64,000 nt of DNA, taken from contig JAVJWO010000047.1 in NCBI GenBank assembly GCA_040222015.1, positions 96,001-160,000 on the forward strand, in the 5' to 3' direction. The stretch comes from Coleofasciculus chthonoplastes F2-STO-03. GTDB lineage: Bacteria > Cyanobacteriota > Cyanobacteriia > Cyanobacteriales > Coleofasciculaceae. Under the pieces are notes generated by a model that worked only from the letters and a program-made list of their open reading frames with translations, was not told where the DNA came from and did not search any database. This document shows, piece by piece, positions 19,360 to 24,978 of the stretch. The translations under genes and the position numbers were made by a program. Within the stretch, counting starts at the first letter, position 1. Each line of letters begins with the position of its first letter.

Positions 19360-20256
19360 ATGGCAACGGAAGCGAGAGCGGTTCGTTTCCAGATTGGAAA
19401 CATTGAGGTTTCTGGTTATCAGCTAACCTCTGATCAGGATCAGCGTCTGTTGTTCACCCACAGGCAAATCGCCGAAGTCGTGGGTAAAAGCAAGGGAACA
19501 GCGCAAAAGTTTTGTAAATCAAACGAAAACAACTTGCCAGAAACCGTCAAGACTGTGGTTCCGGATAAACCCAGACCGATCGCGTTATCATCCTGGGATG
19601 CAGCCGTAGCGTTTTGGCAACATCAAGCTAATGCTGGGAATGAGACAGCAACAGCTTTGGTAGAAGCAGCGCGTTCCACACCACCAGAGACTCTCCAGAT
19701 TGAACCAGCGAGTGAGATAGAGCCAGTTGAGACATCCTATCCCAAAGACATCGAAGGCGCGATCGCACAATTACCCCAAACCGATGAATTCCCCCTTGAT
19801 AACCAACTCCAGCAACTGGATCAGGGGTTACGGTTAATCGCTAAATGGTTAGAAGAAGCGGGATTGGATCAACGTGCGATCGCGTCTTGGAAATTGAATG
19901 TACTCACCCAGCGTTTTCCGGCTTTAGCCAGTGCTGCGAATCAAGCACAGCAGCTTTTAGTCACCCATTCGGTTGAGGAGCCATCCGGGATGATCGCCTC
20001 CCAAGTGGCTGAGAAGGTGTCAGCGCAATTAGGACGAAAGGTTAAAGCCGCTCAAGTTAACGCCGCACTCCATGAATTAGGCATTCAGGAATGGACTAAA
20101 CCTGGTTCCAGAGAGCGACGACTTACCGAAAAAGGAAAAGAATACGGGCGAGCCATGCTAGCCACATCCAAAACCAATACCTGGAGTGGAGCGCAGTTGC
20201 GATGGTTTGATAATGTTGTTCCTTTGTTATGTGAATATTTGGCAGATTCCAAATAA
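19360..20256 (+). CDS. Phage antirepressor-like DNA-binding protein (KilA-C/ANT-like C-terminus)
   Basis: N-terminal HTH-like FTHRQIAEVVGKS; C-terminal AAQVNAALHELGIQ...LTEKGKEYG. Confidence 0.55.
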   Translation: MATEARAVRFQIGNIEVSGYQLTSDQDQRLLFTHRQIAEVVGKSKGTAQKFCKSNENNLPETVKTVVPDKPRPIALSSWDAAVAFWQHQANAGNETATALVEAARSTPPETLQIEPASEIEPVETSYPKDIEGAIAQLPQTDEFPLDNQLQQLDQGLRLIAKWLEEAGLDQRAIASWKLNVLTQRFPALASAANQAQQLLVTHSVEEPSGMIASQVAEKVSAQLGRKVKAAQVNAALHELGIQEWTKPGSRERRLTEKGKEYGRAMLATSKTNTWSGAQLRWFDNVVPLLCEYLADSK

Positions 20257-20279
20257 AATATGCCCCAGTTCGACCAGCC

Positions 20280-20759
20280 TTAGCCGTAATCTATCGGTAA
20301 TGACAGAGGTTGTGTTGGATTCTCGGTACTCCACTGCTCTAGAATCTTTTGCAAACGAGCTAAGGCATCTTCATCGCTACTAAACTTAATTTCAGCAATA
20401 ACAGTGGGGATACCTCTAGGAAACCGTGATATATTCTTATCTTTTTCGTAAAGTAGAATCAACGGGATATTATGGATTTCTGCATAAGCTAATTCCATCC
20501 CAACGCCAAAAGAAGGACAACCCAGGTAGGCGATGACTAAATCTGACGAACTAACTTGGCGCTTGTCTGTCTCAAAAACTTGTCGAGCGCTAACATCAGG
20601 GTTATTAATCGGATCGGTTTTGAGATGGGGAACATAGACTTGAAATTCCATCGTTTCACAAAGCTCCCCAATCGCTTCATAAAATGCCTTGAGTTTTAAA
20701 GGATTTTCAACTCCAGTTAACGCACCTGAAATGTAAATGTGTGCTTGAGTTTGATTCAT
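20280..20759 (-). CDS. Nucleoside 2-deoxyribosyltransferase/DNPH1(Rcl)-like N-glycosidase
   Basis: YISG, D...SDLVIA, PSFGVGMELAYA with catalytic Glu. Confidence 0.85.
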   Translation of the reverse strand: MNQTQAHIYISGALTGVENPLKLKAFYEAIGELCETMEFQVYVPHLKTDPINNPDVSARQVFETDKRQVSSSDLVIAYLGCPSFGVGMELAYAEIHNIPLILLYEKDKNISRFPRGIPTVIAEIKFSSDEDALARLQKILEQWSTENPTQPLSLPIDYG

Positions 20760-20821
20760 AACTTAATGAATAAAGACACCTAAGTTAATTAGTTAATTCA
20801 GGATGATTTATTTAAAAGATA

Positions 20822-21577
20822 TTATTTGGCTTTTAATATCTCGACAACAAAAGGACTTATACCACCGATAACAGCCGCTAAAGAAGCGCCTATCACTGGA
20901 TTAATTAAAGAGGTTACAATACCAATAGCTAAAGCGACAACAGCAAAAGAAGCCATCCCGAATAATCGATTTTGACGTTCCCGTCTTTCCCTCTCTTTCT
21001 CTTCTTTTATTTCTCGCTCCTGTCGTTGTTTTTCTTGATTAGCCTTCTCTCTAAGCTGCTGTTTTTCTTGACTAGCCTTTTCTATAAGCTGCTGCCAGAT
21101 GTCATCTCTGTCAGGAGGTCTTCCAACAGACACTTTAGCTTGAGAATCTACTCTGAAAAAGCAAACTGTGCAGAAAGAATCTCCCAGTCGAAGTTCTACA
21201 GGACTATCGCGATAGTTGTGGCAAGAAATTAAAAGTTTACCAGTCCATCCGGGATCTACAGTAGTAGAGATGTGAGATAATCCTTGAGAATTAACCCGTG
21301 TAGCCATGGCATGAATAGTTGCTCCCACCTCCCTTGATAAAGTTATAGACTCCAACGTCTCAATAACTACTGTATCCCTAGGTTCAATTTCAATTCCACC
21401 GTCTCTTTCAATATTTTCTTCACGTTTATTATTCCAAGAAAATCCTTTTTTTCCAACTCGCAAATCATAACCAACCGGTGTTAAATACTTTTTATCAAAA
21501 GGCTCTATTGAGATTCCTGTATCTGGATCTCTCTTTTGAGATTCTAGTTGTTTTTCAATATCAACATCGCTAAACAC
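20822..21577 (-). CDS. dCTP deaminase/dUTPase-fold protein with coiled coil and two C-terminal TM helices
   Basis: GYDLRVG, ETLESITL, VDPGWTGKL; E/K/R/Q-rich coil; two terminal hydrophobic segments. Confidence 0.85.
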   Translation of the reverse strand: MFSDVDIEKQLESQKRDPDTGISIEPFDKKYLTPVGYDLRVGKKGFSWNNKREENIERDGGIEIEPRDTVVIETLESITLSREVGATIHAMATRVNSQGLSHISTTVDPGWTGKLLISCHNYRDSPVELRLGDSFCTVCFFRVDSQAKVSVGRPPDRDDIWQQLIEKASQEKQQLREKANQEKQRQEREIKEEKERERRERQNRLFGMASFAVVALAIGIVTSLINPVIGASLAAVIGGISPFVVEILKAK

Positions 21578-21619
21578 AGTTCCTTGACCTCAACTATTAG
21601 TTTGGGTATGAGATAACGG

Positions 21620-22162
21620 TTATACGCTAGCTCTAGCAACAGACGTCGGCTTTAATAAAAATGATGCCGCTCTGTTTGCTGTTTCATCAGATAGCTGAAT
21701 TTTTTTCAGGGTAACTAAACCCTCATTGATAAATGAATCTCTAACCAGAATGCTTCCTCCACTGTTAAAGGGAGTTTCATAAAAGACTTCATGGATGCCA
21801 GCAGAAATGATCAGTTTTAAACAAGAAAGACAAGGTTCTAGGGTGACGTAAATACTGGCATCAGTCGTCGCAATGCCATGTTTAGCCGCTTGTGCCAGCG
21901 CATTGGCTTCAGCGTGAACAGCGCGAGATGGCATCTCTTTACTGGCATCACAGCTACTTAAACCTGGGTAGCAATATCCCTGTTCTGTACAATGAGCTGA
22001 TCCGGCGGGTGATCCATTGTAGCCAGTGGCTAAAACTTGTTTGTTTTTAACAATTACTGCACCAACCGGAAAAGCCAAGCACGTTGAGCGAGTAGCGGCA
22101 AGTTTTGCCAGCATGAGGAAGTATTCATCCCATGTTGGTCGATCTTGATCAAATGGTGTCAT
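21620..22162 (-). CDS. dCMP deaminase (ComEB/DCTD family)
   Basis: RPTWDEYF, ATGYNG, HAEANA, PCLSC zinc motifs. Confidence 0.93.
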   Translation of the reverse strand: MTPFDQDRPTWDEYFLMLAKLAATRSTCLAFPVGAVIVKNKQVLATGYNGSPAGSAHCTEQGYCYPGLSSCDASKEMPSRAVHAEANALAQAAKHGIATTDASIYVTLEPCLSCLKLIISAGIHEVFYETPFNSGGSILVRDSFINEGLVTLKKIQLSDETANRAASFLLKPTSVARASV

Positions 22163-23655
22163 TTACTATCCTGGGTATAGAGCTTATTCGTTTTCAGTGA
22201 TTCAGCGGCTTTCTGTAACTCCATTCCTAAATAAGCGGCATGATCGGGTTGAATAGCTGGGGAAGCTGCACAAATTTCCCTGATCAGCGTTAGGGGATTT
22301 TTGCCTGAATAGCAAGCAACGACTTCACCACTACCCGGAGTTGTTTGTTTAACAACGATTTTGTTGGCGTCAATTTCAATTAAAAAGTTACCCGCCGGGT
22401 CATAAAAGTCTCGATTCCGACAAATTGCAGGATATTGTTTTCGGATTAACTGATCTGCATTTTCCCAGGTATCATCATAAATATGAGCGCTCTGACTGAT
22501 AGTAATCAATGGTCCCATTCGCAAATCATAACTAGAGCGCTGGGCAATTTCGTCTCGGATGTACTGTTGCAGGGCGCGTAGTCCCATGGCGTTCGAGGGC
22601 CACGCCATGTACATATCATTACTGCGGAGAGTCGCAGTCAGGGATAACTCATTATCGACAACCCTCGCCCAAAGGTGATTCAGACAAGGACTACCCCCTT
22701 GTTCGTGATCCTTAACATCCCACAGAGACATCACGGCACTTGCCGCATCAATTTCTCCAATTAATTTAGTAATAATCTGCTCAATTTGGTCTTTGCCAAA
22801 CCATGAACGGAGGCGTTGACCGTAAGTATATTTCACACCTTCTCGATAAGGCGCATCATCTAAAATTTGGTGAATGTACTCCTGAATAAAAGCGCGATCG
22901 CAGGGTAAATAGTTGGGTTCAGGGAAATAGAACCCTGGGGGTTCATCCGTCACCACCGCCATCAAATCAATTAATTCTTGCCATTGCCCATCATAACCCG
23001 TGGGACGAATGGTTCCAGTTGTTTTAATCCGATGAATAATTTTGACCCAGGTTTCAGCAATCGTCTTGCCTTCGATTCGATGTCCGTAGCGCGGTCCCGG
23101 TAAAACTGTTGGTACGGCTTCAGTTAGGGGAAATTCTAGCGGCGCACCCCAGGGTTCAACCCTATCCCTCACCGCATAAGACTTTACCTGACTCACCGCT
23201 TCAGCCATTGATTTCGCCTCTTGCCACTCCACCGATTGCCGGAGAGTCTCCAAAGCATTAGCCTCAATTTCAATATCGATATAGCCAGGAATCGCAGATC
23301 GAATCACCCAACAGCGACGCCCTGTATCGCTGAACCCTTCAGTAAAACCATTGCGGAAGAAGTCTAATAAGCATATCCCACCCCCAGCATTTTTGTCTTC
23401 TTTCGTAGCGTTGAGAACCAGAAGGTAGCGGACATGAGGATTCGCTAATAGATTCCGGATCAGCAGGCTGATACCCCGTGTCGGACTATAGAGTTGACCG
23501 ATAACAGCAAACTCATGAGGTTGTAACTGTTTGGCGATCGCACCTTTAACCGTCCAACCTGTAACCACCGCCGTCTGACCCGTACCGTAAATGAGCTGGT
23601 TGGGCTTGTGTAGGGGTTTGTACTGGAATTGAGTAATCTGAGCGCTAGCTGTCAT
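22159..23655 (-). CDS. Thymidylate synthase (archaeal-like ThyA) fused to an N-terminal MtrA-like domain and a C-terminal DUF4346 domain
   Basis: YTYGQRL, SPCL, RSNDMYMAWPSN, SAHIY; N-terminal RNLLANPHVRYL; C-terminal DPAGNFLI...HAAYLGMELQKA. Confidence 0.85.
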   Translation of the reverse strand: MTASAQITQFQYKPLHKPNQLIYGTGQTAVVTGWTVKGAIAKQLQPHEFAVIGQLYSPTRGISLLIRNLLANPHVRYLLVLNATKEDKNAGGGICLLDFFRNGFTEGFSDTGRRCWVIRSAIPGYIDIEIEANALETLRQSVEWQEAKSMAEAVSQVKSYAVRDRVEPWGAPLEFPLTEAVPTVLPGPRYGHRIEGKTIAETWVKIIHRIKTTGTIRPTGYDGQWQELIDLMAVVTDEPPGFYFPEPNYLPCDRAFIQEYIHQILDDAPYREGVKYTYGQRLRSWFGKDQIEQIITKLIGEIDAASAVMSLWDVKDHEQGGSPCLNHLWARVVDNELSLTATLRSNDMYMAWPSNAMGLRALQQYIRDEIAQRSSYDLRMGPLITISQSAHIYDDTWENADQLIRKQYPAICRNRDFYDPAGNFLIEIDANKIVVKQTTPGSGEVVACYSGKNPLTLIREICAASPAIQPDHAAYLGMELQKAAESLKTNKLYTQDSK

Positions 23656-23706
23656 AGGAGGCTGCGAGTTAAGAAATCTCTAGCCTAGAATAGCAAAGAA
23701 ACGGAG

Positions 23707-24978
23707 TTACACAGCAGGTAAACGCACCTGAAAGCAGCTACCCACCCCAACCTGACTCGTCACCGTGATTTTCCCACCATGACGTTGCGCGATCGCTTGA
23801 GCAATAGCTAAACCCAACCCTGTCCCCCCTTCTCGGCGAGAACGGGCTTTGTCCGCCCGCCAGAAGCGATCAAACACAAAGGGTAATTGTTCTCGCTCAA
23901 TGCCAATTCCTGTATCCTTAACACTAACAACGGCAAAGCGATTATTTTTCGCTAAAATTAGGTCTACTTTCCCTTTAGCAGGCGTGTATTGAATCGCATT
24001 TTCCAGCAAGTTACAAAATAAACGACTCAGTTGTGATTCATCCCCTACCACAGAAACTGTAGCTAGCCACTGAGACTGGATTTTCACCTCTTTGTCTTGT
24101 GCAAAAGGTTCTAATAACTCCAGCAAGTTCTTTAAAATCTTATTCAGAGAGATTGTGATTTTCTCACGGCTAGGCGTTGATATCTTACTATCGTTTCGCG
24201 CTAAAAAAAGTAAGTCTTCTGATAAGTGACTCATCTGATCCGTAGCACTCGCGATCGCCGCTAACTTTTTCGCATCTTTAGGATGAATTCGTTCCGGATG
24301 ATTTCGCATCACATCAACCGATGCTTTAATCGCCATCAAAGGACTGCGTAACTCATGAGACGCATCCGCCGTAAACTGTTTAAGTTGCTGAAAACTTTGC
24401 TCAATTGGCTCCAAAGCTTTCTGTGTCAACCACAGTCCGCCCAAACCCACTAAACCTAACCCCATAACACCACCCATTCCCAATCCCCACAGCATTTGGC
24501 GTTGGAAGATTTGGATATCCTCCATCGATTGTGAGGCACGAATATACCCTTCTAGAGAGGGCTGATTGGGGGTTGAGCCATCTTTAAACACCGAAATTGT
24601 ATACGTGCGAACCTGTCTGGGCTTTTGCTTTTCTTCTTGAGTTTGAGAACCGACTCGGAGTCGAGAGTCCAACTCTAATGCACCTCGACTTGCCAACAGT
24701 TGACCCTTGGCATCAAACCATTCTAAACTTTGCTGATCCCGATTAAAAATATCGCGCCAGGGAACCGCATCCACTTGATTCAGATATCGAGGTCCCTTCA
24801 TTTTGACAGGCGTAAACGAGGCGGCAGCGGCTTGAGCCAGAGTCAATAGTTTTTTATCCAGTTGGTAATAAAGATTGCGGCTAACAAAGACATAAACTCC
24901 CGTGCCAAAGAGACTCAAAATTGCTGCCATTACAGTTAGGTAAGACAACAATAGACGCCAGCGTAAACCTTGAAACAT
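23707..24978 (-). CDS. Membrane sensor histidine kinase
   Basis: 2 TM, FTADASHELRSPL, NLLENAIQYT, GTGLGL; start moved to MFQGLRW. Confidence 0.93.
   Translation of the reverse strand: MFQGLRWRLLLSYLTVMAAILSLFGTGVYVFVSRNLYYQLDKKLLTLAQAAAASFTPVKMKGPRYLNQVDAVPWRDIFNRDQQSLEWFDAKGQLLASRGALELDSRLRVGSQTQEEKQKPRQVRTYTISVFKDGSTPNQPSLEGYIRASQSMEDIQIFQRQMLWGLGMGGVMGLGLVGLGGLWLTQKALEPIEQSFQQLKQFTADASHELRSPLMAIKASVDVMRNHPERIHPKDAKKLAAIASATDQMSHLSEDLLFLARNDSKISTPSREKITISLNKILKNLLELLEPFAQDKEVKIQSQWLATVSVVGDESQLSRLFCNLLENAIQYTPAKGKVDLILAKNNRFAVVSVKDTGIGIEREQLPFVFDRFWRADKARSRREGGTGLGLAIAQAIAQRHGGKITVTSQVGVGSCFQVRLPAV

Follow-up and report, generated by a model that had tools for sequence, protein, structure and literature searches.

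A degenerate dUTPase-fold protein with a membrane tail in a cyanobacterial thymidylate cassette, a putative nucleotide-sensing membrane effector

Three described defence systems provide the closest precedents for the protein considered here. In Kongming (KomA-KomB-KomC), KomB is a dead house-cleaning HAM1 pyrophosphatase with a retained pocket that senses dITP, and KomBC is not activated by dUTP (10.1101/2024.12.20.629578). Thoeris ThsA of the TM-macro type joins a nucleotide-binding domain to transmembrane (TM) helices and undergoes ligand-driven clustering, and the NDT-type active site is noted to resemble TIR sites (PMC11204291). In Clover (CloA-CloB), a phage-driven change in pyrimidine dNTPs is the trigger and a partner enzyme restrains the effector (PMC13434031). 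The roles of motifs I-V and of the inter-subunit sites in dUTPases follow a further account, in which motif V closes the active site of the trimeric enzymes (PMC12524310). The closest solved structures to the present protein are those of archaeal Dcd-like dUTPases (P45: 9ln0 and 9ln3; Thermococcus pacificus: 8y1w), which are soluble and keep the RSS motif.

The window analysed here is a stretch of 64,000 nucleotides from Coleofasciculus chthonoplastes. It contains a cassette of four genes on the minus strand, in the order thymidylate synthase, dCMP deaminase, pseudo-dUTPase and NDT/Rcl-like N-glycosidase:

20259..23706, no strand given: swappable dTMP-supply cassette (blastn flanks stop at 20258 and restart at 23707)
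22159..23655, minus strand: MtrA-like, ThyA-type thymidylate synthase and PterinBD-DUF4346 parts in one protein (Pfam and NCBIfam profiles)
21620..22162, minus strand: dCMP deaminase, Zn, ComEB-like, 180 residues (PF00383, E 3e-27; TIGR02571 under cut-off)
20822..21577, minus strand: DCD/dUTPase-fold pseudo-enzyme with a charged helix and two TM segments, 251 residues (open reading frame list, GTG start)
21134..21574, minus strand: DCD/dUTPase-fold domain of that protein, residues 2-148 (PF22769; Foldseek 9ln3, TMt 0.87, rmsd 1.2)
20280..20759, minus strand: partner gene, NDT/Rcl/MilB-like nucleotide N-glycosidase (PF05014, 33.9 bits against a cut-off of 28.8)

The 251-residue protein has the fold of trimeric dUTPases and dCTP deaminases (PF22769), found by Foldseek (E 9e-16), by hhalign (99.6%) and by Pfam, which matches the DCD profile to residues 17-142 (E 9e-14, 52.2 bits against a cut-off of 27). 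Against TIGR02274, the dCTP deaminase equivalog, it scores 71.6, under the cut-off of 92.8. The AlphaFold2 monomer (mean pLDDT 94.3) consists of a beta-fold to residue ~142, a continuous helix at 155-225 and a second helix at 227-250. Kyte-Doolittle windows mark hydrophobic segments at 211-229 (2.29) and 230-248 (1.79), both preceded by a very hydrophilic, strongly charged stretch at 163-195; here and below, TM segments are those called by a hydropathy scan, not by a dedicated TM predictor. The charged coil and two hydrophobic helices that a first-pass annotation had read from the letters are thus borne out by both the scan and the model. Weak matches of the coil and TM part to DUF4337, SseC and other Pfam or NCBIfam entries were rejected as compositional.

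The first-pass annotation had also held that the protein keeps the YDLR and DPG motifs of dCTP deaminase, that GRSS has become AMAT and that the catalytic Glu has become Ser. The alignment to E. coli Dcd (phmmer, 1xs1/1xs4) places each of these where it had been expected: YDLR occupies residues 37-40, D108-P109-G110 lies on D128-P129-G130, A90-M91-A92-T93 on G109-R110-S111-S112, and S118 on E138. Nine canonical Dcds give the same register, and the canonical deaminase residues are absent. E138 is the catalytic residue of E. coli Dcd, as the titles of mutant PDB entries indicate, and S111 and R115 are functional too; the RSS..R motif to which these two belong reads AMAT..N/S in the 251-residue protein. 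The conservation of the relevant positions was assessed in a set of 260 homologues, made up of 120 listed out of 127 and 140 new identifiers drawn from the top 150 of a further 1,464 matches at E<=1e-10:

21458..21469, minus strand: YDLR, motif I, D38 (column Asp in 231 and Asn in 20 of the 260 listed homologues)
21299..21310, minus strand: AMAT at the position of GRSS, motif II being lost (Ser111-equivalent column Val in 216, Ala in 37 and Ser in 2 of the 260)
21224..21256, minus strand: DPGWTGKLLIS, with Asp108 of motif III retained and Ser118 at the place of the deaminase Glu (D108 in 257 and Glu in 0 of the 260)

The protein therefore retains the motif I Asp, the motif III Asp and the aromatic residue of trimeric dUTPases, P45 type included (Trp or Tyr at 111 in 250/260), and has lost two other features, the Arg-Ser of motif II and the C-terminal lid of motif V, each of which survives in two of the 260 listed homologues (P0244 and P0251). 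P0251 keeps both and yet has a hydrophobic tail, which makes it a possible intermediate; the C-terminal end of P0244 is DUF5678. The pocket hairpin, S104-T105-T106-x-D108-P-x-W-x-G113, is the most conserved part of the family and, together with N121 and T137, is kept in 229-259 of the 260 listed homologues (S104: 236, T105: 251, T106: 235, G113: 258, N121: 259, T137: 252). Position 91 divides the set, being Met in 75 and Ile in 24 of the 120 near homologues and Lys or Arg in 116 of the 140 distant members listed. Across eight related pairs, the head gives dN/dS values of 0.10-0.32 and the TM part values of 0.08-0.39; both are under purifying selection. Degeneracy and membrane fusion are conserved features of the family, not the marks of a decaying gene.

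The step from a missing Glu to a dead enzyme stands only in part. Loss of the Glu disposes of deamination, and such activity in the 251-residue protein is very unlikely. However, the nearest solved structures are dUTPases that lack the Glu, so its absence alone is no proof that the enzyme is dead; the argument against dUTPase activity comes instead from the lost RS motif and the lost C-terminal Y-G-YQ lid. Some pyrophosphatase activity may persist through D108, as the first-pass annotation had allowed.

Beyond the head, the chain runs through a long linker into the membrane tail:

20966..21115, minus strand: charged linker helix, residues 155-204, with conserved R157 (AlphaFold2 monomer; R157 in 222 of the 260 listed homologues)
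21026..21091, minus strand: 33-bp stretch of the linker (11 residues) repeated in tandem and in frame (the two units agree at 29 of 33 bases)
20903..20962, minus strand: TM helix 1, residues ~206-225, with conserved G219 (hydropathy, AlphaFold2 and conservation)
20843..20896, minus strand: TM helix 2, residues ~228-245, in which positions 230, 234 and 238 hold small residues (Gly, Ala or Ser in 83-85% of 120 near homologues per position)

Of 102 near homologues in which the spacer between W161 and G219 could be measured (18 of the 120 lack an anchor and were left out), 92 have a spacer of 36, 47 or 58 residues. The helical phase between head and membrane thus appears to be preserved by steps of 11 residues, as judged from length classes that rest on few events, since the 36 and 47 classes may each be a single one. 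By a crude hydropathy scan, 157 of the 260 listed homologues have two TM segments, 75 have a single one and 28 lack any, many of the last being fragments. In one sequence (P0146), the degenerate head carries an adenylate/guanylate cyclase (PF00211, E 2.7e-5) instead of the TM tail. No further fusion was found among proteins of 561-2000 residues, which is weak evidence. At another locus, a DCD head is fused to NDT without a TM segment (L035:6001-6798, 265 residues), perhaps through a deletion.

The partner gene encodes a putative NDT/Rcl/MilB-type N-glycosidase, to judge from its PF05014 match and its catalytic Glu. Its Y9, D65 and E89 are invariant in 44 aligned copies, and weak PDB matches link it to MilB (4jem) and Rcl (2khz), with E89 aligning to the MilB Glu. 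The NDT/Rcl family cleaves nucleotide monophosphates, which is consistent with these matches. A natural fusion of NDT and dCMP deaminase, 336 residues long, occurs elsewhere (L010:5315-6325). The pseudo-dUTPase and NDT genes have GC contents of 0.39 and 0.40, set in a genome of 0.454. Apart from the pseudo-dUTPase gene, profile searches and tblastn of this genome (99.99% complete) found no PF22769 match, and neither PF00692 nor a dimeric dUTPase nor ThyX turned up. The three-part protein, whose ThyA portion is short and of archaeal type, is the only thymidylate synthase found. We saw no mention of DUF4346 together with thymidylate synthase in the literature searched.

Within the genus the cassette is exchanged. 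A sister-species genome (G287) carries dcd and a thyX with an intein, bounded by identical flanks; one genome (G422) has the same cassette; in another (G340), dcd and thyX are accompanied by a member of a different subfamily; and in a fourth (G258) the contig ends before the cassette. The family gene is present in two of the four other genomes. The three-part thymidylate synthase (22159-23655) likewise swaps with thyX. Between cobA and the cassette lies a 298-residue open reading frame (19360-20256), conserved in the genus, which has no Pfam match and only weak matches to IS-transposase-like HTH domains. The thyX and dcd genes found at this locus often contain inteins bearing HNH or LAGLIDADG nucleases (L117:6416-7771, L099:6759-8123, L096:3876-5969, L110:7172-8551). 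Mobile elements concentrate at the cassette locus. Scans for promoters and terminators stayed at chance level (5 against 6.2 expected and 5 against 3.5 expected, respectively). The one RNA run found contains 0.05 of the query words; its contigs span the flanks and not the pseudo-dUTPase or NDT gene, which indicates that the RNA came from a relative without the cassette.

Among 301 genomes of the order, the family is present in 28 at E<=1e-15, and a diverged one-TM form in six more brings the count to at least 34. The family alignment detected diverged members of the kind that the PF22769 genome search missed (G189, G107, G101). Eighteen of the 301 genomes carry a close NDT homologue: 11 are among the 28, six have an adjoining diverged form of the family, and the eighteenth (G435) has a 142-residue family remnant, according to our reading of its sequence. 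The family gene therefore co-occurs with a close NDT homologue in 17 of 18 genomes, in one of which (G229) the two genes are on different contig ends. At 20 dCMP-deaminase loci from genomes with no or only a weak PF22769 match, five have both genes and 15 have neither. Broken copies, as expected for an optional gene, are found (L027:6506-7525, L103:6010-6501, L225:4062-4490); they have been disrupted by an IS insertion, a premature stop or an internal deletion. Sixteen genomes from eight genera, all at least 99% complete, have dCMP deaminase and match neither PF22769 nor PF00692 nor the family alignment; those without a detectable trimeric dUTPase or dCTP deaminase include G147, G139, G077, G181 and 12 more. 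Cyanobacteria can evidently live without such a fold, and the pair is an optional insert. A role as stand-in housekeeping dUTPase, which the lack of any other dUTPase fold in the genome had suggested to us, is weakened by these 16 genomes.

We have considered whether the protein might still be an active enzyme, a dUTPase or another dNTP pyrophosphatase tethered to the membrane, whose phosphate site has been rebuilt and which serves to supply dTMP or to clean the pool. Hydrolysis might proceed through the retained D38, D108 and W111, with R94 and R157 replacing the lost phosphate contacts; the Glu-less archaeal dUTPases are the nearest structures, and this is the only DCD/dUTPase-fold gene found in the genome and sits among dTMP genes. 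We regard such an enzyme as unlikely, since the motif II Ser and the lid, whose counterpart closes the dUTPase site, are lost in 258 of the 260 listed homologues, many family copies lie directly beside an intact dut or dcd, 16 cyanobacteria have no such fold at all, and the genome also carries MazG and UDG genes.

Of the 171 rows in a quick tree, the 119 that belong to the family fall into a single clade that excludes canonical Dcd and Dut (SH-aLRT 95), and at least four separate cyanobacterial lineages sit at dTMP genes; the tree uses few columns and leaves out P45-type sequences, so that descent from archaeal dUTPases rests on similarity only. The family is found in bacteria, in archaea and on plasmids, and outside this setting its partners are Dut, NUDIX, Dcd, ThyX or AvcD-like genes. 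We reduced 156 loci to 126 at 90% identity and labelled neighbours by blastp to our own reference set, so the counts that follow are lower bounds, taken over kin that are not independent and with no control set. A dcd, dut, thyX, thymidylate synthase, dCMP deaminase, AvcD-like or tmk gene lies within two open reading frames at 83 of the 126 loci, and at 99 when NDT and NUDIX are added. The corresponding numbers are 57 and 58 of 59 for cyanobacterial loci and 26 and 41 of 67 for the others; 26 of these 67 show no labelled nucleotide partner, many of their contigs being short. At 115 non-redundant loci the next gene downstream is visible, and at 55 of them it is a dut, NDT or NUDIX gene on the same strand within 400 bp. 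Three related members are directly upstream of AvcD-like genes (~296 bits, under the cut-off of 400 for NF041025), and two loci are inside type I restriction-modification (RM) operons. Six plasmid records match; of three examined, two place the family gene directly before dut and the third has no dut-type partner, and one dut-paired plasmid copy lies behind a SIR2 gene and one plasmid copy near a type I restriction gene. In an archaeal-looking clade (L172, L178, L180, L184-L186), a one-TM member is directly upstream of an intact dcd, and in a Bacillota locus (L039:5959-9479) the family gene, a HAD hydrolase, a ParB-CE protein and the same three-part thymidylate synthase stand in a row.

PADLOC 2.0 (2023) matched only 18 of 99 chosen non-cyanobacterial neighbours (97 picked from 154 listed plus two AvcD-like; no control set), including pAgo, SIR2 and a restriction enzyme, with several generic methylase or radical-SAM matches. 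The 251-residue protein itself gave only a chance-level match to LeoB (E 0.011), and four family members gave none at 1e-12. No relatives of the family were found in the viral contigs and phage records searched.

These neighbourhoods could also suit a device or scaffold with no part in defence, nucleotide-gated and membrane-bound, that exports or imports deoxy-pyrimidines or bases, or that anchors or regulates the dTMP enzymes. Repeated landing at dTMP loci in at least four cyanobacterial lineages, the 83 of 126 loci with dTMP-type neighbours and the lack of a defence-library match speak for it. We doubt this reading, as the gene is present in about a tenth of genomes, is swapped within a genus and has copies on plasmids and within RM operons, and two short helices joined by a 3-residue loop would be small for a transporter. 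Least probable of all is a protein-sensing decoy, in which co-assembly with a trimeric Dut or Dcd of host or phage, or the trapping of a phage dUTPase inhibitor, would trigger the TM bundle: it draws on a fold that builds its sites between subunits (PMC12524310) and on the many copies beside dut or dcd, and is at odds with the lack of a second Dcd/Dut-fold gene found in this genome to pair with, with a constant partner here that is an unrelated N-glycosidase and with a pocket hairpin that is the family's most conserved part.

The reading that we prefer, at roughly even confidence, is a pseudo-dUTPase that senses a deoxyuridine nucleotide, is coupled to a membrane effector and is held off by a partner enzyme, in the logic of Kongming and Thoeris. 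A dead or nearly dead trimer of the dUTPase/Dcd fold would bind a deoxy-pyrimidine nucleotide at its inter-subunit pockets, most likely dUTP, dUMP or a modified form such as hm-dUMP, and the signal would pass down the register-locked helix to the bundle of TM helices. The product of the adjoining gene (here the NDT/Rcl-type N-glycosidase, elsewhere Dut or NUDIX) would act as a brake by keeping the ligand low in the healthy cell. The ligand would rise and trip the effector when a phage skews or floods the pool of pyrimidine dNTPs or, in other hosts, through the action of an AvcD-type deaminase; we infer that membrane damage would follow and that the role is anti-phage. The conserved pocket without catalytic groups, the phase-locked helix, the TM hairpin, the cyclase swap, the optional presence and the neighbouring cleaner all fit such a partner-restrained sensor-effector, and the position of the cyanobacterial copies at a housekeeping locus and not in a defence island counts against it. 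So do the lack of a PADLOC match for the family, the low share of neighbours matched by PADLOC, the 26 of 67 non-cyanobacterial loci that show no labelled partner, the lack of relatives in the viral records searched, the retention of D38, D108 and W111, the many members with a single TM segment or none, and the restriction of the cyclase fusion to one sequence. The ligand sensor proposed in the first-pass annotation is upheld in part: conserved degeneracy and membrane fusion, gene context, patchiness, the cyclase swap and the 11-residue linker steps suit a sensing module, while the ligand and the trimer with six clustered TM helices, which the annotation also proposed, remain candidates. For the protein of the window, a monophosphate (dUMP or hm-dUMP) is plausible, because the cassette enzymes act on monophosphates and the near clade has lost the Lys/Arg at position 91, a correlation within one clade; dCMP deaminase makes dUMP and thymidylate synthase uses it. 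More tentatively, the family may form a cross-domain class of anti-phage guards, in which a dead dUTPase trimer serves as a membrane pore gated by dUTP, dUMP or hm-dU nucleotides within a thymidylate operon and is paired, module by module, with a silencing cleaner (Dut, NDT, NUDIX) or a feeding deaminase (AvcD-like), deoxyuridine nucleotides being the immune signal.

The family is widespread and apparently undescribed. We found no description in the literature searched, where preprint supplements with tables of candidate systems could hide one, and the available parts of PMC10733785, PMC1802613 and 10.64898/2025.12.03.692087 do not mention it; database entries name its proteins dCTP deaminase or hypothetical. 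If our reading is right, the dUTPase fold would be a further house-cleaning enzyme, after the HAM1 and macro domains, to have been turned into a sensor for immunity. Deoxyuridine nucleotides would become a signal, and phages that reshape the pyrimidine pool could be detected directly; phages with dU-DNA raise dU precursors with their own deaminases (PMC12697855). Defence-like genes inside an essential operon, annotated as dCTP deaminase, would have been missed by searches of defence islands.

Comparison with known enzymes and systems sets these features in order. With the archaeal dUTPases the protein shares its fold (TMt 0.86-0.88, rmsd 1.2-1.9, 31-35% identity), GYDLRVG, DPGW.G, the lack of the deaminase Glu and the hairpin length; unlike them, the family has [KMI][VA][ST], an invariant ISTT hairpin, no lid, a long helix and TM helices. 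dCTP deaminase and DCD-DUT (E. coli: 1xs1, M. jannaschii: 1ogh, M. tuberculosis: 2qxx) have in common with it the PF22769 fold, the motif I Asp and DPG, but the equivalents of E138, S111 and R115 are all replaced, the TIGR02274 score is below cut-off and a membrane tail is present. AvcD (NF041025) is an unrelated Zn-deaminase plus kinase fold, and the 180-residue deaminase of the cassette has no kinase domain. The protein is a member of none of Kongming, ThsA TM-macro and Clover. Clover has a soluble dGTPase effector with an NTase brake and no homology to the family. As in ThsA TM-macro, a putative nucleotide-binding domain is joined to TM helices; the putative ligand is a metabolite of the dNTP pool and not an NAD-derived signal, and no TIR gene or macro domain of type II Thoeris was found in the cassette (Pfam, PADLOC). 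The cassette genes likewise include no HAM1, SIR2 or ADA. Kongming has a HAM1 fold, dITP and a SIR2 NADase where the protein of the window has a dUTPase fold with a fused putative effector; the likeness lies in a cleaner turned into a dead, pocket-keeping putative sensor beside a nucleotide deaminase. By anatomy and context, we suggest that the protein is a candidate for a new variety of nucleotide-sensing membrane effector.
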